Assembly (NCBI GenBank): GCA_965203905.1 | Contig: CBDBDQ010000005.1 | Coordinates: 4,416,001-4,480,000, forward strand | Reading direction: 5' to 3' | Origin: Spirochaetia bacterium | GTDB taxonomy: Bacteria; Spirochaetota; Spirochaetia; SZUA-6; Bin103 | DNA length: 64,000 nucleotides | Shown: positions 16,007 to 45,192 of the stretch, one piece after another | Layout of the letters: each line of letters begins with the position of its first letter | How positions within the stretch are numbered: position 1 is the stretch's first letter | Notes under the pieces: generated by a model | What the model saw: only the letters and a program-made list of their open reading frames with translations | Told to the model about the DNA's origin: nothing | The model's database searches: none | Made by a program: the position numbers and the translations under genes

Positions 16007-18448
16007 TTGTCGAGCGTGAGGGTTGCCTACAATGAGAAAGAGGCGCCGCTGGAGGTGCTGTTGAGGACGATCGACCGCCCCGGAGACTTCTGTACGCAGG
16101 ATCGGATGCTGGTGCCGATGCCGCGCGTCGAGGTGGAAGGGGCGCGCTCTCTCTCCTTCCCGATCACCGAGGAGCAGGCGCATGCGCTCGTCGCGGTGGC
16201 GGAACCGGCGCCCTATGGCAGGGGCGAACAGACCCTCGTAGACCGTTCCGTGCGCGCCTGCCGGCAGATCGATGCGGCGCGGGTGCGAATTACCGGCAGG
16301 GCGTGGCGCGACACCCTGGCGCAGGTCGTCGCACGGGCCGCAACGGGACTCGGCTGTCCGCCCGAACAGACCTCCGCGTGCCTGTACAAGCTGCTGGTGT
16401 ACGAGAAGGGCGGCTTCTTCGCCCCGCACCGGGATACCGAGAAGGTCGACGGCATGGTTGCTACGCTGGTGCTGTCGCTCCCGGTGGCGGGCGCCGGCGG
16501 GGAGCTGGTCATCCGCCACCGGGAGCATGAAAAGGTCGTCGACCTGCGCACCGACGAAGCCTCTGAACTCGCGTTCGCCGCGTTCTATGCGGACTGCGTG
16601 CACGAAATCCGTCCGGTGACGGACGGCTACCGAATCGTCCTCGTCTATCACTTGGTAGTGCGCGGTGCCGCTGCCGCGGTGCTCAAGGCCGCGCCCTACT
16701 ATCGCTCGCAGGAAGAGCAGATCGCGGCCCGATTCAGAAACTGGGAAGCGACTTCGACGGCGGGTGACAAGTTGGTCTGGCTCCTGGAGCACGAATACAG
16801 CGAGGCGGGTCTGTCGTTCGACGTGCTGAAGAACGCCGACGCGGTGTTGGGCCGGGTCCTCGCGCGGGCGGCGGAGCAGGCGAAACAAGTGCTGTACGCG
16901 GCCATCCTCGGAATCTCCGAGTGGGGGACCCTGCCCGAGTTGGCCGAGTCACTGGACTGGGACGAACCCTCCGACGACTGGGAGTCCATGGAACTGGTCC
17001 ACTCTACCCGATCACTGGTCGGACTGGTTGCACCGGACGGCTCGCGTCCCGACTACGGCGAGCTGCCGCTGTTGCCGGGAGAACTGCTCCCCGCCGGGGC
17101 GCTGGACGGCGTGGCGCCGGATCAGGAGGACACCCGCTTTACGGGCAACGCAGGCGTAGAGATGAGCCGCAGCTATCGTCGCGCGGCGCTGGTGCTGTGG
17201 CCCCGGGAGAGGACCGTGGGGACCCTCGCCCGCGGCGACATCGAAGGTGCCCTGGCGTGGTTCGCGGATGACCTGGCGCGATCGCAACGCGACATCCGGT
17301 CGCAACCGCGCTTGTCCGGTCTCGCCGCTCAGCTTATCGCCGCCTGGCCCGAGCCGGACCCCGCTCGATTCCATAGCCGGCATCGCTCGGATTGGTCACA
17401 GCCGGCCTACGGTGAGGCGCTTCGCCTCCTGCACCGGCTGGGGGACGAGGCCACCATCCGGCGCTTTCTGTGCGAAGTTGCCACGCAACACTATAGCGGG
17501 GCGGAAAACGTCGAGTTGCTGAGGACGGCGACGGAGGTAGCTCCCGCTGTCCTGCACACCTGGCTGCCGCAGTTCACGGCGGCTAATTTCTCGCACGCCC
17601 CGGGGGACGTCCTCGACTTGCTTTGGCGTCTGCACCGGCAGGAAGATTCAGGTCCCGACCTGATCCGGCGCTTGGCGCTGGTCGAGGCGGTGCGAGCGGT
17701 CTGCCTTCTGTTGCCCGTTGTGGTGGAGGGCGCAGCCACCGCGCAGCCGGCCGCGGCCCGCTTCCGGCCGGCACGGCGGTGGAACTCCGGCCGGCCGCTG
17801 ACGGCACGGGCGATCCGCTCTCTGTTCGCACTGATCTGGCACTGCGCGCAGCCGGCGGCGGCCGCGGAAGCTGCCGCGCTCCTGGTGCAGCGTCCGGAAG
17901 CGGCTCCCCCGGATCGGGCCCTGCCGCTGGCACTTGCGGAGCTGGCGAAACTGGATGGCATGGCCGGCGATGCGACCGAGTCTGCCGGGTTCGCGGCGCT
18001 CTGGCGGCACGCGGCGGCTTTTCTGCTGGCGCGCAGCCCGGCGCCCCCCGAGGAGCCGCGCGACTGGGTGATCGAGTCCGTTGTCGGGTGCGACTGCCCG
18101 AACTGCGATCGGCTGCGAGCCTTCTGCGCGGACGCGGTAGCCACGACCTTACGGTTCTCGATGCGTCAGGACATGCGCCTGCACATCGAGTCGGTGATCA
18201 CCTTTGGGCGACTCGACATCGACTGCCGGACCGAGCGCGAAGGCAGATCGGATATCCTGATCTGCACCAAGACGCGCGCCTCCTACGAACGACGATGTGC
18301 GCAGTACGCCCAGGATGTCACGCACATGCGGCTGCTGGTTGCCGCGGCCCCCGGCAGCGGCGCTGCGGTGGCCGACGATCTGGGGCAATTGCACGCGGCG
18401 CTTGCGCGCGCCGGACGAGCGGTCAGCCCTTCAGAGAGCCGATCATGA
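16007..18448 (+). CDS. Large 2OG-Fe(II) oxygenase-domain protein
   Basis: APYGRGEQT, LYKLLVY, HRD (HxD), GGELVI, ADCVHEIRPVTDGYRIVLVY; GGAGGAGG upstream of TTG. Confidence 0.8.
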   Translation: MSSVRVAYNEKEAPLEVLLRTIDRPGDFCTQDRMLVPMPRVEVEGARSLSFPITEEQAHALVAVAEPAPYGRGEQTLVDRSVRACRQIDAARVRITGRAWRDTLAQVVARAATGLGCPPEQTSACLYKLLVYEKGGFFAPHRDTEKVDGMVATLVLSLPVAGAGGELVIRHREHEKVVDLRTDEASELAFAAFYADCVHEIRPVTDGYRIVLVYHLVVRGAAAAVLKAAPYYRSQEEQIAARFRNWEATSTAGDKLVWLLEHEYSEAGLSFDVLKNADAVLGRVLARAAEQAKQVLYAAILGISEWGTLPELAESLDWDEPSDDWESMELVHSTRSLVGLVAPDGSRPDYGELPLLPGELLPAGALDGVAPDQEDTRFTGNAGVEMSRSYRRAALVLWPRERTVGTLARGDIEGALAWFADDLARSQRDIRSQPRLSGLAAQLIAAWPEPDPARFHSRHRSDWSQPAYGEALRLLHRLGDEATIRRFLCEVATQHYSGAENVELLRTATEVAPAVLHTWLPQFTAANFSHAPGDVLDLLWRLHRQEDSGPDLIRRLALVEAVRAVCLLLPVVVEGAATAQPAAARFRPARRWNSGRPLTARAIRSLFALIWHCAQPAAAAEAAALLVQRPEAAPPDRALPLALAELAKLDGMAGDATESAGFAALWRHAAAFLLARSPAPPEEPRDWVIESVVGCDCPNCDRLRAFCADAVATTLRFSMRQDMRLHIESVITFGRLDIDCRTEREGRSDILICTKTRASYERRCAQYAQDVTHMRLLVAAAPGSGAAVADDLGQLHAALARAGRAVSPSESRS

Positions 18449-19327: not shown

Positions 19328-20314
19328 CTACCAGAGGGTGTTCTGCCGCAGCGCCCGCGCAATCTGGTTGACGCTGATCAGCAGGACCATGTTGATGACG
19401 GTGTTGAACAGGTTGATCGCCGTCGAATAGTCGTACTGGGCCTTGATCAGCCCCACCTTGTAGATGTAGGTGGCGATGATCTCGGAGGCCTCGGCGTTGA
19501 GCAGGTTCTGCAGCAGATACGCCTTCTGAAAGCCCACGTTCATGATCTGCCCCAGGCTCAGGATCAGCAGGATCACCGCGGTCGGCATCAGCAGCGGCAG
19601 GTCGATGTGGACGATCTTCTGGCGGATGGTGGCGCCGTCGATGCGGGCCGCCTCGTACAGGGTGGGGTCGATCCCGGCGAGCACCGCCAGGTAGATGATG
19701 GCGCCCCAGCCGGCGTGCTGCCACACGCTCGACAGCACGTAGATGGTCTTGAACCAGCGCGCCTCGGCAAGAAAGTTCACCGGCTCGCCGCCGAGCAGCA
19801 CCAGCAGGTGGTTGACCATGCCGCTGACCGGCGACAGCAGCACGTAGAGCATGCCGGCGAGCACCACGATGGAGATGAAGTGGGGGGCGTACACGGCGGT
19901 CTGCACCACCCGCTTGTACGTGGCGGCGCGCATCTCGTTGAGCATCAGGGCCAGGATGATCGGCACCGGGAAGCCGAGCGCCAGCTCGTACAGGCTGATG
20001 CCGAGGGTGTTGGTGATGACGCGCCAGAACAGGAACGAGTTGAAGAACTTCTTGAAGTGGACCAGGCCGGCCCAGGGGCTGCCGGTGATGCCGAGGGTGG
20101 CGACGAAGTCCTTGAACGCCAACTGCACCCCGTACATGGGCACGTAGTGGAACAGGATGAAGTAGGCGACGGCGGGCGCCGCCAGGATCCAGAGCTGGTG
20201 CTCGCGCCGGAGCGTCTTGACGAGTCGGCCGATGCCGGTGGCCGGCCCGAGGCGGATTTCGCCCGGCGGTGTCGCGCCGGCCTGCCGGGTGGCGCCGCTC
20301 AGCGGCCCATCCAG
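19328..20314 (-). CDS. Carbohydrate ABC transporter permease (LplB-like)
   Basis: YVPMYGVQLAFK, PHFIS, LYEAARIDGA, TYIYKVG; start approximate. Confidence 0.9.
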   Translation of the reverse strand: MDGPLSGATRQAGATPPGEIRLGPATGIGRLVKTLRREHQLWILAAPAVAYFILFHYVPMYGVQLAFKDFVATLGITGSPWAGLVHFKKFFNSFLFWRVITNTLGISLYELALGFPVPIILALMLNEMRAATYKRVVQTAVYAPHFISIVVLAGMLYVLLSPVSGMVNHLLVLLGGEPVNFLAEARWFKTIYVLSSVWQHAGWGAIIYLAVLAGIDPTLYEAARIDGATIRQKIVHIDLPLLMPTAVILLILSLGQIMNVGFQKAYLLQNLLNAEASEIIATYIYKVGLIKAQYDYSTAINLFNTVINMVLLISVNQIARALRQNTLW

Positions 20315-21093
20315 CGCAGCTTTCCGGGCTCGAACACGCGCCCCGGCTCGCCGTAGTCGTTGCCGGCCAGGTCCTTGCCGCGCAGCAGGTAGACGGTGTG
20401 CCGGCCGCGCTGCCTGGTGGGGTTGAACTTCACGTCGGTGGTCATGTAGCGCATGGTGTAACCGCAGCGGCGGCGGCGACTGGTGTTGGGGCTGGAGCTG
20501 TGCATCAGCTTGGCGTGATGCACGTGACACTCGCCGGCGCGGATCGCCAGGTCGACCGCCTTGCTTTCGTCGAGCTGGTCGGGGCGGATGCGGGTGCCGA
20601 ACACGTGCTGCGAGTGGTCCACCTCCTCATACTCCGAGAAGCCGTGGTGGTGGGTGCCGGGAATCACCCGCATGCAGCCGTTCTCGGGCAGCGAGTCGTC
20701 GATCGCCAGCCACACCGTGACCACCTTGTGCTCGCTCAGGCTCACGTTCCAGTAGGCGGAGTCCTCGTGCCACGGCACCGCCAGGCCGCGCTGCGGCAGC
20801 TTGCACAGGAAGTGGCTGGCCCACAGTGCGATGTTGGGCCCGATCAGGCGCTCCACGAAGTCGAGCACCTCCTCCGCGGCCAGCCACTCGAACAGCTCGG
20901 GAAAGGCAAAGTGCGGGACGTCCATCCCCTCCGGGCGCGCATCCTCCGGCAACTGCGCCAGCATGCCGTCGAAGAAGCGTTGCAGGCGTCCGAACTTCTC
21001 TGCCGGAAAGAGCTGGTGGTGATAGACCAGGTAGCCCTGCTCGGTGAAGAAACGCAGGTCGGTGTCGGTCAGGTGTACCGGGTGTCGATCCAA
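20299..21093 (-). CDS. Phytanoyl-CoA dioxygenase (PhyH) family protein
   Basis: WHEDSAYW, VWLAID, ENGCMRVIPGTH, HSSSPNTS..RR. Confidence 0.9.
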   Translation of the reverse strand: MDRHPVHLTDTDLRFFTEQGYLVYHHQLFPAEKFGRLQRFFDGMLAQLPEDARPEGMDVPHFAFPELFEWLAAEEVLDFVERLIGPNIALWASHFLCKLPQRGLAVPWHEDSAYWNVSLSEHKVVTVWLAIDDSLPENGCMRVIPGTHHHGFSEYEEVDHSQHVFGTRIRPDQLDESKAVDLAIRAGECHVHHAKLMHSSSPNTSRRRRCGYTMRYMTTDVKFNPTRQRGRHTVYLLRGKDLAGNDYGEPGRVFEPGKLRWMGR

Positions 21094-21151
21094 CTTAGGA
21101 ATGCTCCTTATGTGCTGCTACCACAATTGGTTTCTGAGGTCAACCGGAACC

Positions 21152-21179
21152 GGTACTCGGGGGTACTCGGGGTACTCGG
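21152..21179 (+). repeat. Short tandem repeat, 3 x GGTACTCGG
   Basis: Copies at 21152, 21162 and 21171. Confidence 0.8.
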
Positions 21180-21720
21180 CGTCGGCGACCTGGCCGTCCG
21201 CCATCCCGGTCGTCTCCGGCTCATCGGAGCCCCTCGCCAGTTTCTCGGTGGCGCTCCACGGCCGTCGAACTCACCTTGAACCTAAGCACAGCCTCCCGTC
21301 CGTAAGCTGTTCTCGGGGGCTTGCTCTGCTACTCGGTTTCGCACCCAGGCGACTCAACAAATACGAGCGAAAAGCTTGTGGAAGAAAGAAAGGCGGGCTA
21401 CAGTGTCCAAACGGAGGGAGGGACACCGCAGACAACGGAGCTACGATGGAGCCGGCCACCTCCACGCCGACTTGAGCGTTGGGGCTCAGAGTGGCGCATC
21501 CAGCAACCAGGGCGGGCGCGCCACAGGCCGTTCGACAGTCGCACAGCGAACAGGGTCGAGGTCGGTCAAGACAACCCCTAATGATTCCCGGCGGCTACTG
21601 TAATCTTCTTCGCATTCATGATCTACTTGCTCTTCATGTGGTACGGCGTAGGTAGAGCTTCCCATGCGTCCCAGGCGATGATTCCTTACCCTCTGATCAC
21701 TTCGTAGGCGGTGAACGAAC

Positions 21721-22845
21721 GTGACCGACCAACGTCGCCTCTCCCAGGTGATAAGAAACCTGATCGCCCGGAAGGGCGAAGGAGTCCATTGGGACTTCAA
21801 GCGCAAGCATCAAGAACTTAGCACGGACTTGGTCCACGATGTACTCTGCCTCGCTAACGCCGAACATGTCGGCCCCCGGTTCCTGATATTTGGTGTCGAC
21901 GACGTTGACTATACGCTCCACGATATTCAAGGAAGCAAAGGGCGCAGGACCCAGGCCGACATCGCCGGCCTATTTCGTGACAATGCCGATAAGTTCTTCC
22001 AGTCGAGGTTCCCGTCGTTTCATCTGCGCGACGTACGGATTGATGGGATACTGGTAGACGTGCTGGTCATCGAGGATGAACCAAAGAAGCCTTACCACTT
22101 GATTGCAAACATCGAAAAGGTCCGGGCCCATCACGTTTACACGCGCGTATGCGATACTAACACGCCGGTCAACAGGTCCGCCCAGCCGCATGAGGTCGAA
22201 CGGATGTGGCGCGAGCGGTTCGGGCTCGATGTACCCGCACTCGAGAGAGCCAGACGGTGTCTTGAGGAGTCGGCCGCGTGGACCATACAGGAGGAGAACG
22301 GCTTCGTCTGTTGCCACCATGACGTGTTGCCTGAATTCACGCTAAGGGCGGCGAGTGCGGAGTTCCCATTAGACAGCAGTCAGGAGTGGACGCGTGGTGA
22401 GATCGCGACTGACGCCAACCATGCCAATTGGTACGAACTACGCTGTCATCAGACGGTGTTGCGTCGCATCCATTATGTGAGTTTCGACAAGCGCAAGAAG
22501 AACATTGTGGCCCCCGATTGGGAGCCGATTGGCAAAGGACGGTTCTACTTCTACAGGGCGGGCAGCGTCGAGCACGCAGTCCAGCAGTTCTGGACCGAGC
22601 GCTACGGACGGGATGACTCCGTGGGGCTACAGATTCGAGGAGACAGCGAATCCGCACGCGAGGCAAGACTGAGGTGGCGTCGCGGCCTTAGCATTCCCGT
22701 TGTCGAGTCCTGGGAGCTGGACGGATTCCTGGTCGGTCGAAGATGGCAGTCAACCCGCGGCCCCGACCCATCCACTGATCCGAACGAACAGTACGAGCTA
22801 TTCCTGCGCAATCTTCTCGATTTTGACGACTGTCGGCACGCTTAA
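21721..22845 (+). CDS. Schlafen AlbA_2-domain protein with uncharacterised C-terminal domain
   Basis: EGVHWDFK, DVLCLAN, LIFGVDD, KPY, VYTR..DTNTP. Confidence 0.82.
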   Translation: MTDQRRLSQVIRNLIARKGEGVHWDFKRKHQELSTDLVHDVLCLANAEHVGPRFLIFGVDDVDYTLHDIQGSKGRRTQADIAGLFRDNADKFFQSRFPSFHLRDVRIDGILVDVLVIEDEPKKPYHLIANIEKVRAHHVYTRVCDTNTPVNRSAQPHEVERMWRERFGLDVPALERARRCLEESAAWTIQEENGFVCCHHDVLPEFTLRAASAEFPLDSSQEWTRGEIATDANHANWYELRCHQTVLRRIHYVSFDKRKKNIVAPDWEPIGKGRFYFYRAGSVEHAVQQFWTERYGRDDSVGLQIRGDSESAREARLRWRRGLSIPVVESWELDGFLVGRRWQSTRGPDPSTDPNEQYELFLRNLLDFDDCRHA

Positions 22846-22857
22846 GAGGACTGACTT

Positions 22858-23487
22858 ATGCGGTCGGACAGAGATGCCGCGTGGATCGAGATGGCGGGAA
22901 TCGCCCGCCCGGATGGCGCACTAAGCGACGGGAAATGGGCTACGCTGAGGTACCGAGTCGACGTAGCGAGAGCGCGGCTCGCGTCCGCCGAAATGCGCCC
23001 TAACAGGAGCATGTGCCGTCTTCTCCTAGTGGGTGAAGACCACAGGATCGCTCTACATCCTGGTGTGGACCCACTTGCGCTTTGCCGGGCGTTGTGGCGG
23101 ACTTATGGGCGCGGGCGCCGCGAAGGCGGGTCCACGGTGGCTATGCAGCTAGTACGAGTGCTTACGGATCGCTTCGAGAGGAGTTGGCGGAGGAAGGCTA
23201 ACGAGATGTTCCTCGCGATACACTTGGCGCGCCATGTGCCAATCGACGAGTTGCCGGCGCTCTATCTTTCTGTAGGCTACTACGGGTGGCGTATGAATGG
23301 CTTTGTCCAAGCATGCCGCCGATTGGGTGTCGACCCGGAGATTTGTTCGCTTCAGGAGTCGGCGTCGGTGGTTGCGCGTCTCAAGTATCCGGAACCAAAA
23401 AGCTGTACGGCGTCGAGACGACTCCAGATAGCTCGAAGGTCCGAGTACCTCATGGCACGGTTGGAGCACTATGGCCGAAGGTACTAA
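22858..23487 (+). CDS. Stand-alone GT51 (peptidoglycan transglycosylase-like) domain protein
   Basis: GEDHRIALHPGVD, GGSTVAMQLVR, RKANE, LYL, ARLKYP; AGAGGA RBS; no evident TM anchor. Confidence 0.8.
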   Translation: MRSDRDAAWIEMAGIARPDGALSDGKWATLRYRVDVARARLASAEMRPNRSMCRLLLVGEDHRIALHPGVDPLALCRALWRTYGRGRREGGSTVAMQLVRVLTDRFERSWRRKANEMFLAIHLARHVPIDELPALYLSVGYYGWRMNGFVQACRRLGVDPEICSLQESASVVARLKYPEPKSCTASRRLQIARRSEYLMARLEHYGRRY

Positions 23488-24166
23488 AGCATTCGTTATC
23501 GATCCGCAGTTGGCCAAGCTAATGGGGGCGTATCCTTGCCCGCAGGACCTGCTTTCGGCCGCCGCGGCTGGGCCGCGTGAGAGGGCGATCCTCGCTCGGC
23601 TGTGGATTTCCGAAGGGATTCCGTTTGCGTTCAGTAGATGCCCGGGTGTCTATGAGGAAGTGCGCGATTCACTCGCCAAGAGACTGAGACTGGACGCGAA
23701 GCAAATCAGCATGGTCGGTAGCGGTCGGATCGGGTACTCCTTGGCACCCAAGAAGTGGGGTGAAGAGTACCGGGCAGAGTCGTCCGACCTAGATCTGTTT
23801 GCCGTGTCCGAACGGTTGTTCGAGAGATTGCGGGAGGACTTCGAACGCTGGCGCGACGACTATGCTCGTGGCGACATACAACCTAGTACGGGACAGGAAA
23901 GATTCTACTGGAACGCGAACCGAAGGGAGACGCCAATCTCCATTCAAAGAGGTTTTATCGATTCGATCCGCGTGCCGAATCGACAGCGTTACGCGGTCTT
24001 CTTGGCAATGAACAGCTGCCTCGCAGACGTCCGGCTCAAACTACTCGAGGCGGGCGAAGGTCCGAAGCCACGAAGCAGGTTGACGCTCAGGTGCTACAGG
24101 CACTGGGACTCGTGCGAACTCCAGATGACCATCAGCTTGAAAGCGGTCGTGGATTATCTGACCTAA
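23471..24166 (+). CDS. Pol-beta-superfamily nucleotidyltransferase-like protein
   Basis: VGSGRIGYS...SDLDLFAVS (hGS + DxD); GGAG RBS; overlaps upstream gene by 17 nt. Confidence 0.65.
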   Translation: MAEGTKAFVIDPQLAKLMGAYPCPQDLLSAAAAGPRERAILARLWISEGIPFAFSRCPGVYEEVRDSLAKRLRLDAKQISMVGSGRIGYSLAPKKWGEEYRAESSDLDLFAVSERLFERLREDFERWRDDYARGDIQPSTGQERFYWNANRRETPISIQRGFIDSIRVPNRQRYAVFLAMNSCLADVRLKLLEAGEGPKPRSRLTLRCYRHWDSCELQMTISLKAVVDYLT

Positions 24167-24493
24167 TCAGTTGGTTGGCATCGAGATCCTCGTGATGACC
24201 TGAAGGCGGCGGATAACAATGATGATATGATAATGAGAAGGAAGAGCCACTGGAAGCGATCCAGAATCGGCCAGGCCCTCACTGTCGCTTTGGAAGCGGC
24301 GCTGGAGGCCGGCTCGGTTCTCGCGCCGGTAGCCGGCGGTTGACGGCTTGGGCGACGGTCGGAGTGGGTCATCGCGCCGTTTGCTGGAACGGATCCGGCG
24401 CTCCCCAGATTCGATCACCTCGCTCGCGGACAGCCACTCGAACACATGCTTCTGAATAAATGGAGTCATCGCCTTGCTACGCGTTCTACGGGG

Positions 24494-25345
24494 TCATCCT
24501 GAGCAATTCCGCAGTCTCTTCAGGAGGGCTTGATAGCGATTCGCTGTTCCTGAACTCACAACCGACTCGGCCAACATCATTTCGTGTTCTTCAGATTTGT
24601 ACCGTACGTCGTAATACCCACTCAAACTGGTCCGATAAACCTCCAGATCCCCCGCTGGAGCGATCTCAGTAGCGTCTACGTATAAAATGTACTTGTACTC
24701 TCCACTCGAAAAATAGAATCCATGATTTCCTATTGTACCCTCCATGTTGTAGGTGCCATTGTCGATCACTATATCCGGCTCGCTGTCGTGTAATCTGTGA
24801 ACTTTCCATGAGGCGTAACGGTATCCGTGGTCAACACGGTCTACTCTGATACGATAGGTGCAGGTCTCCCATTCTAGAACGGGAGAGCGGTAGTCTCTTA
24901 GACTCTCGTGCAACTCACGTCTTTCCAGATCGATCAACCGATACCTCTCGCGCTCTTCGAGTTCTGACTCATAGTTTATATTGCGTATTCGACCATCACT
25001 ATCGAACCATACAAGTCCACCGTGCAGTTGAAGCCCGCGCCATCCGATCCGGCCGCATTTGTCGTTGTCTGACGAGACGATGAGCCTCACAAACTCGTCG
25101 TCAAATATCTCTCCATAGCGCTCCATAAACTCGTCACGAGAAATACTTGGAAGCGGATGCCTCCTTCGTAGCGGGAATCTAATTGCTTCCGCTAATCGAT
25201 TCTTGTCTCCATCGCGCACTAACGCAATGAATCGATTGACTATCGATACGTCATCTTCTTCTTGATCCACACAAGAATCTACTTGCGCGGGCACCATCAC
25301 CGTGCCGAGCAAGAGGAGTGGACCGATGAGCACTACGATTCTCAA
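24494..25345 (-). CDS. Hypothetical exported protein (lower GC)
   Basis: TTG at 25345 gives a signal-peptide-like MRIVVLIGPLLLLGTVMVPAQ; protein-like body (IRFPLRR, GWRG, YRYASW). Confidence 0.7.
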   Translation of the reverse strand: MRIVVLIGPLLLLGTVMVPAQVDSCVDQEEDDVSIVNRFIALVRDGDKNRLAEAIRFPLRRRHPLPSISRDEFMERYGEIFDDEFVRLIVSSDNDKCGRIGWRGLQLHGGLVWFDSDGRIRNINYESELEERERYRLIDLERRELHESLRDYRSPVLEWETCTYRIRVDRVDHGYRYASWKVHRLHDSEPDIVIDNGTYNMEGTIGNHGFYFSSGEYKYILYVDATEIAPAGDLEVYRTSLSGYYDVRYKSEEHEMMLAESVVSSGTANRYQALLKRLRNCSG

Positions 25346-25377
25346 CGGTCCGCCGAGCGTCCCACTTTGGTTCGCCT

Positions 25378-26994
25378 TTAATCGCTCAGGTGGCGGTCGT
25401 AGACCTTCTGGTAAATCTCCAGCAACCGCGGCAGGCCCATGCTGTCGAGCCGCTGCAGGTAGCCCTCCCAGTCCTCCTCGATGCCGCCGTCGACGATCCA
25501 CCTGGCGCCCATCTCCTGGGTGAACTGGTTGATCTCCGGCGCCAGGTCGGCGATCTCGTCGTTCTCCTCCTCCAGCATGTAGACCAGCGGGAAACGCACG
25601 TAGCTGGCGATGTAGGGCGCGTACTGCTCGTTGCCGGCGAACTTGTCGAGCTGGTCGGCGGTGGGCTCCATCAGGCGCATCACCTCGACCGGCAACGCAT
25701 AGATGCCCATGCCGCGCGGCACCGACTGGTTCTTCCAGCTGATGCGGCTCTCGAACCCGTCGGGGATCTCGGCGTGCACGTAGGTGCCGTCGCCCTTCTC
25801 GAGGATCTGCTTGCCGATGATCCCGAACCACGACTGCAGCGCCCAGGTCGGGTCGTACTGCAGGTCGGCCCAGCGCACCGCCGCCTGCGGGTACTCGGAG
25901 GCGCTGGTGACCGTGAACGCGTTGAGGAAGTAGCTCGGCGGATCGCCCGGCCAGCGCCGGCCCGCGGGCCCCTCCAGCGGATCCATGGTGACGTAGCCGC
26001 TGTCCACCCCCTCGCCGAACAGGTAGGCCGCGCTCCACGCCGTGAACGAGCCCAGGATCGGCGGGTCGAGCTGGCGCTGCTTGGCGGTCAGCTCGGCGTA
26101 GGAGTGGGAGAACGCCTCGATGTCGATCAGCCCCTCGGAATAGAGGCCGTGGAAGTACTCGATGCCGTCCCGGTAGGCGTCGGTGGCGGCCACGTAGATC
26201 ACCCGCGTCGGGTCGTCGCGGTCGATCGAGATGCCCATCTCCTCGCCGAGGTGGTGCTGGCGGTCGACCCCGAAGCTGCTGAACAGCGGGTACACGCCCA
26301 GCCAGCCGAAGGTACGGAAGGAGAGCGGGATCTCGTCCGCCTCGCCGTTGCCGTTGGGGTCGCCGTGCTTGAAGGCGCGCAGCACCTCGCGGTATTCGTC
26401 GTAGTTCTGCGGCATGTCGAGGCCCAGCTTGTCGAGCCAGTTCTTGTTGATGAAGAAGTGGAGCTGCGGCTCGGCGCCCGACTCCCAGATGCCGGGCATG
26501 GAGTAGATGTGGCCGTCCGGAGCCTGCATCGCAAGCCGCACCTCGGGCCGGTCTTGCAGGATGCGGTTCAGGTTCGGCGCCCACTGTGCGAGGTCGTCCT
26601 CGATCGCCCGGAACACGCCCTGCGGCGCGTGCGTGAGGATGTCCGCCGGGTCCAGCGTCTTGTGCATGAAGAACGCGTCCGGGTAGTCGCCCGAGGCGAA
26701 CAGCAGGTTCTTCTTCTCCTGGTACGCCTCCTCCTGGATCTGGCGCCACTCGACGTGGATGTTGGTCTTCTCCTCCACCATGTCGAAGAACTCCAGTCCC
26801 TCGTGCGGATAGGTCTTGTGGCCGATCACCCCCACCATCTCCAGGGTGATCTTCTCGGTAGTCACCGGGTAGCCGGAGTCGGTGTAGATGTCGGCAGCCG
26901 CCGTCCCCGTCTCCTCGGTGGCGGCGGCGAACGCGCCGCCCGCTCCCAGCGCGAGCAGGACTGCGGTACTCAGCAGCGTGCGAACCTGTTTCAT
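25378..26994 (-). CDS. ABC transporter extracellular solute-binding protein
   Basis: AGGAGGA RBS, signal peptide, EEKTNIHVEW, ASGDYPD, INKNWLDKLGL, DPNGNGEADEIP. Confidence 0.92.
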   Translation of the reverse strand: MKQVRTLLSTAVLLALGAGGAFAAATEETGTAAADIYTDSGYPVTTEKITLEMVGVIGHKTYPHEGLEFFDMVEEKTNIHVEWRQIQEEAYQEKKNLLFASGDYPDAFFMHKTLDPADILTHAPQGVFRAIEDDLAQWAPNLNRILQDRPEVRLAMQAPDGHIYSMPGIWESGAEPQLHFFINKNWLDKLGLDMPQNYDEYREVLRAFKHGDPNGNGEADEIPLSFRTFGWLGVYPLFSSFGVDRQHHLGEEMGISIDRDDPTRVIYVAATDAYRDGIEYFHGLYSEGLIDIEAFSHSYAELTAKQRQLDPPILGSFTAWSAAYLFGEGVDSGYVTMDPLEGPAGRRWPGDPPSYFLNAFTVTSASEYPQAAVRWADLQYDPTWALQSWFGIIGKQILEKGDGTYVHAEIPDGFESRISWKNQSVPRGMGIYALPVEVMRLMEPTADQLDKFAGNEQYAPYIASYVRFPLVYMLEEENDEIADLAPEINQFTQEMGARWIVDGGIEEDWEGYLQRLDSMGLPRLLEIYQKVYDRHLSD

Positions 26995-27005
26995 GGCTTC
27001 TCCTC

Positions 27006-27035
27006 CTTGATCGGACTTGATCGGACTTGATCGGA
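27006..27035 (+). repeat. Perfect tandem repeat, 3 x CTTGATCGGA
   Basis: Copies at 27006, 27016 and 27026, immediately 5' of the SBP RBS. Confidence 0.9.
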
Positions 27036-27073
27036 GCCTGTCGGGTACACCAAACCACGGGCACACCACGCCG

Positions 27074-27700
27074 TCAAGGACGTGCAGTCGGCGTGGTCGG
27101 CGTCAGGACATCCCCCGGATTACGCGGAAACCCGGCGACTCCCCGCGAGCGGTCGAACTGGTAGGTGCGCTCGCCACGCCACTGCCACTTGCGGAACGGC
27201 AGCACCTTGAAGCCGCCGCCGGCCAGCGCTGGCGATGCTCCCGGCCGGCGGCAGGCGGCTAGCGCCTCGGCGCGGAGCGCGGCAGCCGTTTCGCGTTGCC
27301 CGGCGGCGAGGTTGCGCACAGCAGCTCGCGGCCGCCGTTGGCGAAGAACAGGTACTTCCAGCGCGGGTCGCGGACCATCACCTTGAAGGCGTCGGTGCCG
27401 GGCAGCCCGTAGTAGCCAACGAGGACCTCGCGCGGCGCGGCCGCTCCCGCCACCATGCCCAGCACGTCGCGGCCTTCCCGGACTTCCGGGTGCCCGGCGG
27501 CGGTGGTGGCGATGCCGAACAGGTCGGTGAGGCACACCAGCTCGGTACGGCGCCGGTCGCGGGGCAGCCGCGCCGGCCAACTGACCAGGAACGGGATGCG
27601 GGCGCTGGCGTCGAAGAAGCTCTCCTTCTGCCAGGCGTGGTGGTCTCCGAGGTGATCGCCATCGTCGGAGAAGAAGCAAATCAGGGTGTCGTCCGCGTCC
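27074..27700 (-). pseudogene. C-terminal sulfatase remnant, 5'-truncated with frame shift/deletion near 27320
   Basis: DTLICFFSDDGDHLGDHHAWQKESFFDASARIPF and RWKY; no CxPxR N-terminus; tail continues in another frame. Confidence 0.75.
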
Positions 27701-27853
27701 GGTCGCGCCTTATGCCGAATGACGACGATCACTGGTCGACGATACAATCCGTTGGCAACGTCAGAGCCCTCGGCGCATCGGACGCGAGTAGTAGCTGTCG
27801 GCTCAAAACCTGGTGGGAGCCGGTCAGCCGTTGGCATTGGAGGAGATACTTGA

Positions 27854-28441
27854 ATGCAAGAGATCGGGTTTCGCCGAATTGTTGAATCTGGAGTCTTCGT
27901 ATGGCCATGGAAGGAGCCGCAGGGTCTGCTGGTTATGAGCGGGGCAGCAGGTGGTGGTGGTGGCGGTGGCGGAGCATTCTGTCTCGAAGGCCTGAATCTT
28001 TATGGTGCAGGCGGCGGCGGCGGCGGCGGCGGCGGCGAGGAAACCCGCGTGATACACGGGAATGCGCACTATAAGGCGGCGGGTGGGGATGGCGGAGTCG
28101 GTGGTGACGGCGGCGGTCTTCACGAGGGCAAGCCTGTCGAAGGCCAGCATGGAAGAGGGTGCCACTACGGCGATGGCGGCCATGGCGGCTACGGGGCAGT
28201 CGTACCTCCGGTCGACGGCCGCCTTGCGTCAAACGGCGGCAATGGCGGGAAGGGCTTTCCGGGAGAGACTCGGATAGTTGAACTTGCCGATCTGACTTCC
28301 GGTGATCGTTTCGAGATCAAAATCGGTAGAGGTGGCAGTGGCGGTGGTGGCGGCCAGGGGTTCGCGGCAGGCGCTGGCGGTGCCACAGGAGCCGATGGAT
28401 TCGTACTGTTTGTTCCCGTACTTTCAGAAAAGGGGAAATAG
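27854..28441 (+). CDS. Glycine-rich hypothetical protein
   Basis: GGAGGAG RBS; poly-Gly tracts; IKIGRGGSGG and GADGFV motifs resemble Gly-rich tail-fibre-type domains. Confidence 0.65.
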   Translation: MQEIGFRRIVESGVFVWPWKEPQGLLVMSGAAGGGGGGGGAFCLEGLNLYGAGGGGGGGGGEETRVIHGNAHYKAAGGDGGVGGDGGGLHEGKPVEGQHGRGCHYGDGGHGGYGAVVPPVDGRLASNGGNGGKGFPGETRIVELADLTSGDRFEIKIGRGGSGGGGGQGFAAGAGGATGADGFVLFVPVLSEKGK

Positions 28442-29094
28442 TGCTGCCTAGACGGGCCGCCGCCGGACATGCGAGCAGGCTAGACAGTCTGCCGATGGCA
28501 ATGGACTTGAAAGGATTTCGTGTTCAGGGAAACGGATGCCTACGCATCACCGAAGACCGTCACCCTCCAAGAATGACATGGAGTTCCAGTCGGCATGTCG
28601 ACAAAGTCGAAGAGACACTCCAAGCCTTGGTTGCGATGGGTGGAGCACGCAATCTCGGCGATATGCTGAATGTTGATCCTAATGAAGAAGCACACCCTGA
28701 GCGCGCCTACATGTCGCGCCTGAAGTTCCTGCAGGACGAGGCGGCACATGACGGGTACGTACTGAATCCTACTTCCGAAGTCGATTTCTGGCAGTTTGTT
28801 CGGTCCGCGCCCGACATTCGGAAAGGCAACCTGGTATTGATGGACAACGGTAACCTTAGAGCGATTTGGAAGGATGAACAGGGAACGCGCCTAGGCTTGC
28901 AGTTCCTTGGTGAAGGAATGGTGCAGTTCGTGATCTTCAAGCAGCGCAAGCAGGGACAACCGATTTCGAGGGTCAGTGGACGCGATTCTTTGGACGGACT
29001 AAAATGGATGATTGTCACCTATGAGCTCCATTCGTTGCTTTACCCAGGAAGCGCGACAGTGTACCGACAGGAGGCCACATCGTTCGTTACGTAA
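28441..29094 (+). CDS. Hypothetical protein (possible antitoxin-like partner)
   Basis: 217-aa ORF with protein-like C-half (GNLRAIWK, LGLQFLG); start uncertain. Confidence 0.55.
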   Translation: MLPRRAAAGHASRLDSLPMAMDLKGFRVQGNGCLRITEDRHPPRMTWSSSRHVDKVEETLQALVAMGGARNLGDMLNVDPNEEAHPERAYMSRLKFLQDEAAHDGYVLNPTSEVDFWQFVRSAPDIRKGNLVLMDNGNLRAIWKDEQGTRLGLQFLGEGMVQFVIFKQRKQGQPISRVSGRDSLDGLKWMIVTYELHSLLYPGSATVYRQEATSFVT

Positions 29095-29504
29095 AGCCGA
29101 GCATGATCCAAGAAGATGGGGCTGCGGATGGTTCAGACTTTCGTGTGCGCTCCACACGACCAGAAGAAGCAGGATTGTCCGTAAATTGGCTCGAGGTATT
29201 TGGACCGGACAAGGTCCATCAGCTGGACGAAGTGCGCCGTTTGTGCCGTCTACACTTGAGGCCAAACGGACGTTTTGCAGAAATAAATGTTGGCACGGTC
29301 ATACACCACGTAGCCACAGAGTTGGACTCGCTGCGCATCATCCATGATCCACTTGAAGCAACGGATCGTTTCGATGCCGACCCATCGCACGCGGAGATTA
29401 CCGGTCTGCCTCCGGGCGATTCGGATCAGGCTGTTTTGGTCGGCGATCTAATCGCAGAGTGCGTCATCGCGATGCACCCGGCCGGCGTCGGGGATGACGG
29501 CTGA
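29043..29504 (+). CDS. Hypothetical protein with ART/RES-like motifs; 5' end appears damaged
   Basis: Frame is open upstream of ATG 29103 (HIVRYVKPSM); GLSVNWLE and DPSHAEI motifs. Confidence 0.5.
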   Translation, partial: PRKRDSVPTGGHIVRYVKPSMIQEDGAADGSDFRVRSTRPEEAGLSVNWLEVFGPDKVHQLDEVRRLCRLHLRPNGRFAEINVGTVIHHVATELDSLRIIHDPLEATDRFDADPSHAEITGLPPGDSDQAVLVGDLIAECVIAMHPAGVGDDG

Positions 29505-33284: not shown

Positions 33285-34217
33285 CTACCTCCGGGCGGCG
33301 TGTTCAAAGACCGGTGAGTTCGCTGCGAAGAACGCCGCGTGGACGATGGCGCCGTCGAGGGTCAGGGCCTGACCGACCAGCCGCCTGTCGGCCACGCGGT
33401 ACTCGACGCCGAGTCCCACCCCCGGGGCTTGCCGACCCGGAGCCGACGCGAATCGTTGCGTGAGATCCAGCACCCGCGTGGCGGATGGGCGGCCCTTGGC
33501 GACGGGTGATTCGAGCAGGTACGAACGGATCAGCGCGGGCCAGTGAACGGCGAGCAGGTCCGGGGCGCCGAACAGGTCCATGGCCTGCACCCAGCTCCCG
33601 TGGGTGACGACGATGCCGCACTGGCCGGGCAGCGGCCCGCAGGCTGCGAGCTTCTCGACCACGGCGGTACGGGGAGGCTCGCGCCGGTGAGCCTGGCGGC
33701 GCACTTCGGCCGCTGACGCCGTGGGTGATTCCACCTGGGCACGGTCCAGCATCCGGTCGACCGCGTCCCACACCGCCGACTGGTCTCCTTCGCGGGAGCC
33801 CCTGCGCCCTATCGATTCGCTCACTCCGGCGTGCTGCGTGGCGCGTACCGTGGCGGCCGCGAACGCGTCGTCGCGGCGGTACCCCTGGCGCTCACCCCAG
33901 CGGCCCTGCTCCAGGCAGGACACCGGGATCTCCAGCTCGGATTCGGGCGGCACCAGAACGGTCGCGTTCAGGGCGCGGTTCTGCTTGCCGCCGAGGAAGT
34001 GTTCGCCCTCGACGACAAGCACCGGACGGTCGCCGGGGTTGCGCACGCGCAGGGCGTGGACAGATGCCTCGTCGAGCTCGTCGACGACAAGGCCCGCACC
34101 CTCGCCGGTGGCGATCGGCGGCAGGTCGTTGGCCGCCAGGTAGACGGGAAAGAAGGACACGCCCAAGCGGGTGATCGCTGAACCGACGGCGACGCGGTCG
34201 AGTTTCGGGATTGTCAT
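33285..34217 (-). CDS. ARPP-1 / DUF6569-like protein
   Basis: GEHFLGGKQNRALN, IPVSCLEQGRW, QSAVW, DLF, LIRSY; GGAGG RBS before ATG 34217. Confidence 0.72.
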   Translation of the reverse strand: MTIPKLDRVAVGSAITRLGVSFFPVYLAANDLPPIATGEGAGLVVDELDEASVHALRVRNPGDRPVLVVEGEHFLGGKQNRALNATVLVPPESELEIPVSCLEQGRWGERQGYRRDDAFAAATVRATQHAGVSESIGRRGSREGDQSAVWDAVDRMLDRAQVESPTASAAEVRRQAHRREPPRTAVVEKLAACGPLPGQCGIVVTHGSWVQAMDLFGAPDLLAVHWPALIRSYLLESPVAKGRPSATRVLDLTQRFASAPGRQAPGVGLGVEYRVADRRLVGQALTLDGAIVHAAFFAANSPVFEHAARR

Positions 34218-34234
34218 GGCACCTCCGTTACCGC

Positions 34235-34255
34235 TTATTGTCGATTGAACAATAA
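34235..34255. promoter_or_regulatory. NrtR operator 1
   Basis: TTATTGTCGATTGAACAATAA: 21-bp palindrome TTATTGT-N7-ACAATAA. Confidence 0.8.
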
Positions 34256-34270
34256 TACAGCCTGGGCTTG

Positions 34271-34291
34271 TGATTGTCAACTCGACAATAT
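34271..34291. promoter_or_regulatory. NrtR operator 2, within the predicted nrtR promoter
   Basis: TGATTGTCAACTCGACAATAT (ATTGTC-N5-GACAAT) between TTGTGA (34268-34273) and TATAGT (34291-34296), 17-bp spacer. Confidence 0.75.
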
Positions 34292-34302
34292 ATAGTTCCT
34301 TC

Positions 34303-35127
34303 GTGGGCCCGAGCGCGTCATCGGACTACGATCCTCGTGGTTTCCCTCCGTTTGCCGTCACCGTGGACGTGGCGGTGTTTACCATCAGGGACGATGCACT
34401 ACAGTTGTTGCTGGTCCGACGGGCGGAAGAACCGCACCGAGGAGACCTTGCTCTCCCGGGTGGGTTCGTGAAGCCGGACGAGGACCTGGATGATGCAGCG
34501 GCCCGGGAGTTGGCCGAGGAGACCGGTCTCCGGGACGAGTCCCGCCACCTGGAGCAACTCGGAAGCTACGGCGCACCGGATCGCGACCCCCGCATGCGGG
34601 TGGTCACCGTCGCCTACTGGGCGATCTGCGCCGATCTGCCAGCGCCGCAAGCCGGAGGTGACGCCGCGTCCGCGATCCTGGTGCCGGTGAAGGAGATCGA
34701 GTCGCGCGGTGTCCGCTTGGCATTCGACCACGAACGAATAGTCAGGGACGCCGTCGAGCGGACGCGGTCCAAGCTGGAGTACACGGCCCTGGCGGCGAAG
34801 TTCTGCCCGCCGAAATTCACGATCGCCGAGTTGCGCCGGGTCTACGAGGCGGTGTGGAACACACACCTCGACCCGGGCAACTTCCAGCGTAACGTCCAGG
34901 AGAGCGGCGCTTTCAAGAAACAGGGCATGCCGGAACCCTCCTTCCGGACCCGCCGTGGACGACGTGCGGCACTCTGGTCCGTCCGCGGGCCAATCTCAGA
35001 TGGCGACCGGTCCGCTGTCCCGTTGCACAGAGCACTCGCCAGACGACGGCATCCGGCTGTACCGCCGGACGACCCGTCCGAAAGCCACGGCGGCCAGCCC
35101 CCGGCGAAGGACGAGGAGACCCTATAG
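34303..35127 (+). CDS. nrtR: NrtR-family Nudix/wHTH transcriptional regulator
   Basis: VTVDVAVF, LPGGF..DEDLDDAAARELAEETG, RDPRMRVV, LAFDH, FTIAELRRVYE, NFQR; GTG 34303 chosen as start. Confidence 0.88.
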   Translation: MGPSASSDYDPRGFPPFAVTVDVAVFTIRDDALQLLLVRRAEEPHRGDLALPGGFVKPDEDLDDAAARELAEETGLRDESRHLEQLGSYGAPDRDPRMRVVTVAYWAICADLPAPQAGGDAASAILVPVKEIESRGVRLAFDHERIVRDAVERTRSKLEYTALAAKFCPPKFTIAELRRVYEAVWNTHLDPGNFQRNVQESGAFKKQGMPEPSFRTRRGRRAALWSVRGPISDGDRSAVPLHRALARRRHPAVPPDDPSESHGGQPPAKDEETL

Positions 35128-44571: not shown

Positions 44572-45192
44572 TTACGCTGCGTTGATTGTATTTCCAAGCG
44601 TCCTGAAGAGTCGCGCGAACGCCGGACACCGCTGCCCAACTCTCTGTGGATCGACTCTCCGCAAGATCTCGCTGGCATGACGGATCTTGTGATACTCGCC
44701 TTTCTGCGTCCGATAAGTAGCATGTTCCAAGGCGCGGATGATGTCTTCTCTGGGGACGCTCTCGAGATTGGCCGTGTTGGGCAACGCATTGGCAAGGAAA
44801 CGCTGCCGGTAGAATGCGGCCAGGGCATCCGGATCCGCGACGATCCAGGTCTCCATGGCCTGGACCATGAGGTGGACCATGTCGTCGGTGGCGAACCTCA
44901 GGTCCCAGCAGTCGCGCGTTTGCAGGTGTACGCGTGGCGAGTTGCTGATCACCACCGTTTCCGCATCGACGAGTAGCACGACGATTCCCCCCATCTGGCC
45001 GTTGCTAACCGCAGTGCGAAATCTGTCGTACGTCTGCTGCCGGCCACCGCAAGGAACCAACCTCCGGTGCCATGATTTCGTTCTCGCCAGTTGCTTGATC
45101 GGGCCGAGAAGTGCATCCATACCCAGGCGCAAAGCTGATTTGGTGTTCTTGCCGTCACCTCCGCCTTCGAGATAGATGGTGACGCTGCTCAC
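44572..45192 (-). CDS. DUF4276-family protein (TOPRIM-like)
   Basis: IYLEGGG, LLVDAE, MVQAMETWIVAD, YHKIRH, RCPAF; GTGA overlap with ATPase. Confidence 0.78.
   Translation of the reverse strand: MSSVTIYLEGGGDGKNTKSALRLGMDALLGPIKQLARTKSWHRRLVPCGGRQQTYDRFRTAVSNGQMGGIVVLLVDAETVVISNSPRVHLQTRDCWDLRFATDDMVHLMVQAMETWIVADPDALAAFYRQRFLANALPNTANLESVPREDIIRALEHATYRTQKGEYHKIRHASEILRRVDPQRVGQRCPAFARLFRTLGNTINAA

Follow-up and report, generated by a model that had tools for sequence, protein, structure and literature searches.

The locus described here raises the question of whether three tightly packed genes of a spirochaete genome form one system or more than one, and what kind of system they encode. 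The genes lie in a stretch of 64,000 nucleotides (nt), referred to below as the window, from a Spirochaetia bacterium (assembly GCA_965203905.1, contig CBDBDQ010000005.1, positions 4,416,001 to 4,480,000 of the forward strand); all coordinates are those of the window unless a locus is named. Gene 1 (21721–22845, plus strand) encodes 374 amino acids (aa) from a GTG start, gene 2 (22858–23487, plus strand) encodes 209 aa and gene 3 (23471–24166, plus strand) encodes 231 aa, the latter two from ATG starts. A preliminary description had read them as a single sensor/signal/effector operon composed of a Schlafen-type AlbA_2 protein, an anchor-less family 51 glycosyltransferase (GT51) and a nucleotidyltransferase (NTase). 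The coordinates of the open reading frames (ORFs) confirm the co-orientation and tight packing on which that description was based, with a gap of 12 nt between genes 1 and 2 and an overlap of 17 nt that couples genes 2 and 3 translationally. The single operon is not supported by the comparative analyses described below. The interpretation favoured here, by a modest measure, is a defence islet of two units, in which genes 2 and 3 would constitute an undescribed conflict module with a cytoplasmic GT51 protein under the control of an NTase.

Co-occurrence of the three genes

A tblastn scan for gene 2, covering one genome per species, confirmed 129 stretches and yielded 79 loci from many phyla. 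A gene 3 relative is located directly downstream of gene 2 in 68 of these loci by tblastn and in 69 by hidden Markov model (HMM) search, and clean, intact pairs are present in 59. The two reading frames overlap in most loci, by 4, 14 or 23 nt, and the genes are likewise adjacent in both of the viral-contig loci (2/2) and on one Aliarcobacter plasmid. Among the ten loci without gene 3, three end at a contig boundary (L036, L057 and L076) and one represents a 791-aa penicillin-binding protein (PBP; L079); in another, L004, an IS21 helper gene adjoins a broken gene 2. Two contain close gene 2 relatives (L019 and L061), and in the last three, L074, L075 and L078, a distant gene 2-like gene is accompanied by a different partner.

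The association between the two genes extends to fusion into one protein. A gene 3 profile matched 1379 representative clusters at E≤1e-3, 298 of them at E≤1e-30, and five of the 150 best representatives are fusions with an N-terminal Transgly domain and a C-terminal gene 3 domain (P0321, 634 aa; P0256; P0312; P0341; and P0363). At their N-termini, these fusion proteins have short stretches of hydrophobic or amphipathic character. P0321 contains, in addition, approximately 180 C-terminal residues without a Pfam family.

No third gene is conserved beside the pair; the largest cluster of neighbours, consisting of methyltransferases, is found in 5 of 69 loci. Relatives of gene 1 were detected in none of the gene 2 loci by tblastn or HMM (0/79), and neither gene 2 nor gene 3 was detected in the loci retrieved by a metagenome scan for gene 1 (0/17, several of these loci being short). 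Because of these two counts, the proposed three-gene operon is not supported: the GT51–NTase pair recurs elsewhere, and gene 1 does not recur with it. The three genes very probably represent two separate units that share one islet.

The pair is rare and patchy across phyla, and its GC content is below that of its hosts. Judged by record titles, these hosts belong to the Pseudomonadota, Acidobacteriota, Nitrospirota, Campylobacterota, Gemmatimonadota, Latescibacterota, Poribacteria, Bacteroidota/Chlorobi lineages and Desulfobacterota. Within the phylum of the window, the gene 3 profile found two matches in 400 other genomes, both partial. Many of the hosts are lineages of metagenome-assembled genomes (MAGs; for example Poribacteria, Latescibacterota, Binatia, Bryobacterales and Gemmatimonadota) that are often reported from sponges and marine sediments.

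Two groups of gene 2 relatives stand apart from the pair. The closest relative among the species representatives (L004:5974-8673; 77% identity, from an Alphaproteobacteria MAG) is split into two frames and is followed by an ORF resembling IS21 IstB. A distant GT51-like subfamily (L074:5284-6495, L078:5375-6510 and L075:1953-3559) is 33–37% identical to gene 2, with intact motifs and without gene 3; its members have an N-terminal hydrophobic segment and are preceded by a gene for a single-pass membrane protein. The membrane partners in L074 and L078 share 38% identity (E 2e-41) and match no Pfam family. Judged from its sequences, this subfamily points to a GT51-like module whose partner can be exchanged.

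Domain identities of the encoded proteins

Gene 2 had been described as keeping the GT51 motifs without a transmembrane (TM) anchor or a transpeptidase domain, and each part of that description is borne out. The protein matches the Pfam Transgly family (PF00912) with 90.8 bits (cut-off 27; E 8.8e-26) over residues 51–201, corresponding to profile positions 25–176, or 152 of 178, and a profile of the gene 2 family matches the GT domain of PBP1a (2oqo) in the PDB with an E value of 1.9e-19. In NCBIfam, only the N-terminal portions of PBP models are matched, far below their cut-offs, and a transpeptidase domain was found with neither Pfam nor NCBIfam. The family comprises 429 homologues of 114–366 aa at E≤1e-3 and has a mean column identity of 53–57% across phyla.

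In GT51 enzymes, motif 1 (ED..H.G) and motif 3 (RK..E) contain the catalytic glutamates, a G.ST element is present, and motif 2 usually reads ..TQQ. The corresponding motifs in gene 2 are EDHR..H.G, GGST..MQ and RK..E, and twelve of their residues are invariant in 53 sequences (E60, D61, R63, H67 and G69; G90, S92, T93 and Q97; R112, K113 and E116). An R-L-K-Y-P stretch typical of the family is invariant as well. Gene 2 therefore shares the Transgly profile and the motifs ED..H.G, G.ST..Q and RK..E with MtgA and with the GT domain of class A PBPs (2oqo and 3vmq). It differs from these enzymes in its motif 2, which reads GGSTVAMQ, in the lack of an N-terminal anchor and of a transpeptidase, in its predicted cytoplasmic location, and in being an accessory, horizontally moved gene with an NTase-like protein as its coupled or fused partner. 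The genome also contains a separate ORF of 855 aa with a GT51 domain, presumably the ordinary PBP of this organism.

With a TM-like segment defined as a stretch of 19 residues with a Kyte-Doolittle value of at least 1.6, no such segment is present in gene 2 or in 115 of the 120 homologues listed, and these proteins have no signal peptide either. The remaining five homologues have an N-terminal hydrophobic segment with three to eight Arg/Lys residues just after it and none before it. According to the positive-inside rule, positive charges flank the cytoplasmic side of a membrane segment, and the GT51 domain that follows is therefore predicted to be cytoplasmic. The fusion of GT51 to an NTP-using domain points to the same side of the membrane. 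For the GT51 domain of the pair in general, these sequence features predict a cytoplasmic location.

Gene 3 belongs to no recognised family. No Pfam, NCBIfam or PADLOC family is matched at E≤1, and among PHROG families only phrog_32008 is matched, faintly. In an Atlas search, gene 3 returned hypothetical clusters only; one of these, ranked 20th, includes PF01909 in 11% of its members and is regarded as a lead only. The hGS...DxD motif that had been noted in this protein is invariant across 55 sequences (G83 and S84, followed by S105, D106 and D108), with the DLD triplet at residues 106–108, and a further aspartate on a later strand (D164, strand 162–164) is conserved in at least 90%. An AlphaFold (AF2) model calculated from the 55-sequence alignment has a predicted local distance difference test score (pLDDT) of 96.5 and a predicted template modelling score (pTM) of 0.90. 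The best rows of an all-against-all structural aligner for this model are minimal NTases, with 1no5_B at the top (Z 5.3, root-mean-square deviation [rmsd] 3.6, 93 residues), followed by 1wot (Z 4.6), the HEPN-MNT structure 8xeh_E (Z 4.5), 5yep (Z 3.9) and 1ylq (Z 3.8). The top three rows align 87–93 residues with rmsd values of 3.5–3.9, and all rows are below the level at which the aligner advises caution (Z ~8).

An hhalign comparison of gene 3 with 11 PF01909 proteins from related genomes gave a probability of 52.9% over 28 columns, which coincide exactly with the GS...SDxD stretch. No match at E≤1e-3 was found by Foldseek among the BFVD viral models. Outside the core, the protein has a conserved helical N-terminal part of approximately 75 residues (W45, G49, P51, F54, P58 and R65) and long helical inserts. 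Based on the model, gene 3 is likely to comprise a Pol-beta-type NTase core with these helical additions. Of the original assignment, the motif holds, and gene 3 is NTase-like only in this motif and in a weak fold similarity (Z 5.3), with no profile match.

For gene 1, the earlier proposal of an AlbA_2 E...DFK core followed by a C-terminal domain of no known family is upheld. The protein's own sequence matches no Pfam family at E≤1; of the 36 relatives in the alignment, 32 match the SLFN_AlbA_2 family (PF04326; best E 3.5e-11), though the protein of the window itself does not at E≤0.01. In the AF2 model (pLDDT 82.7), residues ~1–145 resemble 2kyy (Z 9.6, 125 aa, rmsd 3.2) and DIP2311 (3lmm; Z 7.7), as well as Schlafen-type structures (SLFN5, SLFN11 and SLFN12, Z 6.3–6.8; SAMD9, Z 6.0; SLFN13, Foldseek E 2.5e-4). 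E20, D25, F26 and K27 do not vary among 36 sequences. Gene 1 is thus an AlbA_2/Schlafen-fold protein over residues ~1–145. The C-terminal ~200 residues, consisting of a beta-rich part (172–264) and C-terminal helices, have no clear fold match.

Among defence-related families, gene 1 matches the PADLOC candidate family PDC-S50 over residues 6–296 (E 2.4e-66), and it also matches phrog_29016 (E 4.5e-43). PADLOC lists PDC-S50 as a candidate family of single genes, and in the portions of the literature consulted it receives passing mentions only. Gene 1 is a new member of this known candidate family and provides one more genomic context for it. With PDC-S50 and with the AlbA_2 RNases of the eukaryotic Schlafen and SAMD9 type it shares the profile match, the AlbA_2 fold and the invariant E..DFK residues; it differs from the Schlafen and SAMD9 proteins in its C-terminal region of no recognised fold and in having no helicase domain, unlike the long Schlafens. 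Gene 1 most likely encodes a stand-alone, nuclease-type defence protein of a single gene.

Context and possible function of the gene 2–gene 3 pair

The genomic neighbourhood of the pair was compared with the PADLOC models by scanning three ORFs on each side in 24 self-chosen loci of the 69 pair loci (140 ORFs; L073 was dropped because of a size limit). A match at E≤1e-20 is present within three ORFs in 17 of the 24 loci (35 of the 140 ORFs), weak matches alone are present in two loci and no match at all in five. As a crude control, the same threshold is reached by 3 of the 42 ORFs in the rest of the window, and two of these are the separate HEC-01 pair described below. In two loci, L028 and L037, the pair is located inside a type I restriction-modification (R-M) operon. 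Other neighbours include PARIS AriA/AriB, MzaCDE, Dsr1, IetA, HEC-01A, HEC-06, type II and type IIG R-M systems, and the candidate families PDC-S05, PDC-S20, PDC-S37, PDC-S45 and PDC-S69. The annotated genes around the pair on plasmid pM830MA are those for DUF4365, PLD-like, TIR and DUF4917 proteins, for HNH plus AAA ATPase, and IS21. The defence-island setting that had been anticipated for the locus is thus found for the gene 2–gene 3 pair, and the pair probably functions in conflict or defence.

The earlier suggestion that the combination is not a named system is also sustained, since PADLOC 2.0 has no model for the pair and none was met in the literature looked through. At the level of listings and abstracts, no combination of GT51/Transgly with an NTase was found in phage defence; the supplementary tables of the published catalogues could list the pair. 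The comparison with PADLOC gave a divided outcome, with gene 1 falling into PDC-S50 and genes 2 and 3 having no model. The plasmid copy of gene 2 is labelled in RefSeq as a 'biosynthetic peptidoglycan transglycosylase'. Because gene 3 has no family name and gene 2 is annotated as an ordinary biosynthetic enzyme, automatic annotation of gene 2 is probably misleading.

The gene structure, the domain identities, the conservation of the pair, its fusions, its defence-island context and the insertion of the islet are direct observations; beyond them, we infer a cytoplasmic location and a substrate for the gene 2 protein, a direction of control within the pair, and an anti-phage effect. In the proposed mechanism, the pair would act as an abortive-infection or toxin-antitoxin (TA)-like conflict module. 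Gene 2 would supply the damaging part, acting from the cytoplasmic side of the membrane, the site of lipid II synthesis, and polymerising or otherwise consuming this undecaprenyl-pyrophosphate-linked precursor before it is flipped. Such use of lipid II would tie up the undecaprenyl carrier and bring wall synthesis to a stop. Gene 3, as a small Pol-beta-type NTase, would be the controlling partner. It may switch gene 2 by nucleotidylylation after infection, which is favoured with low confidence; in a close alternative, gene 3 would neutralise gene 2 by AMPylation, as in HEPN-MNT pairs. The role of gene 2 as a lipid-II-directed cytoplasmic effector is put forward tentatively and is itself rather doubtful.

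Loci in which gene 2 persists without an intact partner bear on the direction of control. Five loci (L012, L019, L021, L033 and L061) have a motif-intact gene 2 and a truncated or absent gene 3, which argues against a lethal gene 2 protein held in check by gene 3 alone. The same loci would be mildly in keeping with a low intrinsic toxicity of gene 2, and activation upon infection is favoured for this reason. A prediction of the complex between the two proteins, carried out with two alignments and without control runs, scored 0.00 both times and speaks neither for nor against binding.

A related, unlikely version assigns the effect on lipid II, exerted at the inner leaflet after infection, to the pair as a whole, such that either gene 2 polymerises in the wrong compartment or the two proteins together cap lipid II into a dead-end precursor. 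In the capping variant, gene 3 would act on a sugar hydroxyl of lipid II in the manner of an aminoglycoside-type NTase. Either variant would sequester the undecaprenyl carrier, shut down wall synthesis and result in abortive infection. On this proposal, the distant subfamily with a membrane partner (L074 and L078) would turn the GT51 domain into an effector module that can be swapped between partners.

An attack of immune effectors on lipid II that has yet to be flipped has been proposed in the Lipocone paper (PMC12419801). The proposed logic of the pair resembles that of the Lipocone (Min-Wnt) proteins, for which the depletion of lipid-linked precursors from the cytoplasmic side is proposed to abort infection; the folds and chemistries are unrelated (phosphoester cleavage versus glycosyl transfer), and the Lipocone proposal is likewise computational only (PMC12419801).

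In its architecture, the pair is close to type VII TA systems of the HEPN-MNT class (1no5, 8xeh and 5yep). These pairs are common in defence islands, and their MNT component controls its partner by AMPylation. They are likewise small, overlapping two-gene units, gene 3 has the corresponding Pol-beta hG[GS]...DxD core, and its best fold matches are MNT proteins. The pair differs from them in that its second component is a GT51 protein rather than HEPN (Rx4-6H) and that the NTase gene is downstream rather than upstream. Gene 3 is, moreover, twice the size, with its helical N-terminal part, its long inserts and no match to PF01909, and gene 2 survives without it in the five loci mentioned above. 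AbiE/MenAT and CBASS share with the pair a Pol-beta-type NTase in bacterial conflict; the pair matches none of their PADLOC models and has no partner resembling AbiEi or MenA. Judged from sequence comparisons, genes 2 and 3 would represent a small, TA-like two-gene module of defence islands with an effector fold new to that role. Should the pair prove to be a defence system, it would introduce a new effector chemistry, namely a cell-wall polymerase fold acting cytoplasmically on lipid-linked precursors, and would offer a tractable two-gene system for how the supply of wall precursors can abort infection.

Several observations weigh against this interpretation. To our knowledge, there is no precedent for a GT51 fold that acts in the cytoplasm, and neither gene 2 nor gene 3 matches any PADLOC 2.0 model (0 families at E≤1). 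The assignment of gene 3 as an NTase is weak (no Pfam family, a best Z of 5.3, an hhalign probability of 53% over 28 columns), and a Foldseek search of its model against the PDB returned nothing at E≤1e-3, only faint terminal uridylyltransferase (TUTase) and mtPAP rows. The loci of the defence scan were chosen for long flanks and for ease of ORF prediction, mostly have lower GC content and were analysed with crude ORF calling and a single-window control. The five loci with an intact gene 2 and no intact gene 3 are unfavourable to strict control by gene 3. Finally, four close pairs of gene 1 and gene 2 relatives share equal longest-contig sizes (31167, 38967, 16758 and 281500), and a sequencing run, X5, holds pieces of both genes at ~90–94% identity; the trio may for these reasons travel together, and may have been kept together, in the nearest relatives.

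Among competing explanations, the one that survives best reverses the roles, with gene 3 as an NTase toxin of the MenT or AbiEii kind and the upstream gene 2 as its antitoxin or regulator. MenT and AbiEii are NTase toxins that nucleotidylylate tRNA or bind GTP, and in most TA pairs the antitoxin gene comes first and the toxin gene second, an order that would fit gene 2 followed by gene 3. The catalytic residues of gene 3 are invariant, and gene 3 is lost or broken beside an intact gene 2 in eight loci (L005, L012, L015, L019, L021, L033, L035 and L061), three of them two-segment cases resembling frameshifts. This asymmetry is biased because the loci were found through gene 2, leaving loci with gene 3 only invisible, and the reverse case, a broken gene 2 with an intact gene 3, occurs in two loci (L071 and L072). 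The broken-gene asymmetry was accordingly discarded as decisive evidence for either partner being the toxin, given that several two-segment cases may also be assembly indels. Moreover, gene 2 keeps all GT51 motifs and the high column identity noted above, which would be unexpected for a mere binding protein, and no PADLOC AbiE model or Pfam family of NTase toxins is matched. Reversed roles are thus improbable.

Quite improbable, too, is a function outside conflict, in which the two genes would serve the cell envelope as an accessory pair for making or editing a glycan or a lipid-linked sugar, with the GT51 protein peripheral on the membrane and the NTase modifying a sugar hydroxyl, as aminoglycoside NTases do. 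The GT51 fold is biosynthetic, its motifs are intact and its RefSeq label is that of a biosynthetic enzyme; 5 of the 24 scanned loci have no defence match, and the islet itself is located in a sugar and sulfatase catabolic region. The neighbourhoods argue otherwise, as they contain no envelope-biosynthesis genes and no conserved third gene and include R-M operons and defence islands, and so do the patchy, rare distribution of the pair, its GC content below that of its hosts and the fact that 115 of 120 homologues have neither a signal peptide nor an anchor.

A single three-gene system, with gene 1 as sensor or nuclease, gene 3 as the signal-making NTase and gene 2 as effector, would account for the tight, co-oriented packing with its 12-nt gap, for the lack of a called terminator between the genes, for a near-identical contig that bridges the gene 1–gene 2 junction (record 21 of run X3) and for the equal contig sizes and X5 pieces in the nearest relatives, and it is nevertheless very improbable given the co-occurrence counts (0/79 and 0/17), the single-gene status of PDC-S50, the ribosome-binding site that gene 2 has of its own, and the failure to find any CBASS-like signalling feature in the trio, the 209-aa gene 2 protein having no evident sensor or cyclic-nucleotide receptor domain and gene 3 reaching only Z 3.6 against CdnE.

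The islet and other features of the window

The conflict-module reading of genes 2 and 3 is set in an islet that was acquired horizontally. This low-GC islet of ~4.3 kb (21094..25377, edges approximate) is located between a host gene for a PhyH-like dioxygenase on its left (20299–21093, minus strand; Pfam PhyH, E 4e-28) and one for an extracellular solute-binding protein (SBP) on its right (25378–27069, minus strand; Pfam SBP_bac_1). Together with two ABC permeases, these genes form the minus-strand surroundings of the islet, an ABC-transporter operon within the catabolic region. The lower GC content that had been reported is confirmed, at 0.54–0.62 from 21.0 to 24.5 kb and 0.48–0.55 from 24.5 to 25.3 kb, compared with 0.65–0.72 in the flanks; the ORFs of genes 1, 2 and 3 themselves have values of 0.58–0.61. 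The orientation of the three genes opposite to the catabolic operon that they interrupt is equally correct, the flanking genes being all on the minus strand.

That the operon was interrupted follows from comparison with five genomes of the same genus. PhyH orthologues are present in all five (83–92% identity), and in two of them, G007 and G009, an SBP orthologue (89–93% identity) is directly beside PhyH at a spacing of 52 and 4 nt, respectively, versus ~4.28 kb in the window; the remaining three have SBP paralogues at 32–34% only. The islet is therefore an insertion between the PhyH and SBP genes. In run X5, one contig joins position 21051 to 25379. This joint is a weak hint, because its shorter side measures only 27 nt and the run carries a relative that is 85–95% identical. 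Run X3, from an independent study and labelled as a sponge metagenome, contains near-identical pieces of the islet. A search of 60 relatives from the same genus, family and order recovered neither gene 1 nor gene 2. As to the means of insertion, the islet edges show no convincing flanking direct or inverted repeats, library scans of the islet ORFs found no integrase or transposase, and no tRNA was found in the window.

Read from the sequence, a ribosome-binding site for gene 2, GAGGA (22846..22850, plus strand), is contained in the gap after gene 1, 7 nt before the ATG, and a GGAG precedes the ATG of gene 3. Scans for promoters (2 versus 1.7 expected) and terminators (2 versus 3.5 expected) performed no better than on shuffled sequences. 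The islet contains a fourth ORF of 258 aa (24497–25270, minus strand), which coincides with the lowest GC content of the region (0.48–0.55). It has no match in Pfam, PADLOC, PHROG or NCBIfam, was not found beside the pair elsewhere (no tblastn match in the 79 loci), and returned hypothetical clusters only in the Atlas search.

A second low-GC stretch (0.53–0.57 at 28.25–29.5 kb) is located within 27262–29500, where a Gly-rich ORF (27854–28438) and two ORFs of 217 and 133 aa without a family adjoin the remaining C-terminal portion of a truncated sulfatase (27262–27837). The stretch resembles a further insertion in the catabolic cluster. At 44575–46379 the window encodes a separate candidate defence system of two genes, where the ORFs at 45192–46379 and 44575–45252 (both minus strand) match PADLOC HEC-01A (E 7e-158) and HEC-01B (E 6.6e-65), respectively, at a GC content of 0.60–0.62, below that of their neighbours. 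An ARPP-1 domain protein (33288–34280, minus strand; PF20208, E 5.6e-64) and its divergent neighbour, which combines NUDIX and NrtR winged-helix domains (34270–35124, plus strand), may form a module related to ADP-ribose or NAD. An ORF of 813 aa (16007–18448, plus strand) contains a short 2OG-Fe(II) oxygenase domain (residues 128–213) as its only recognised part, with approximately 600 residues to which no domain is assigned.

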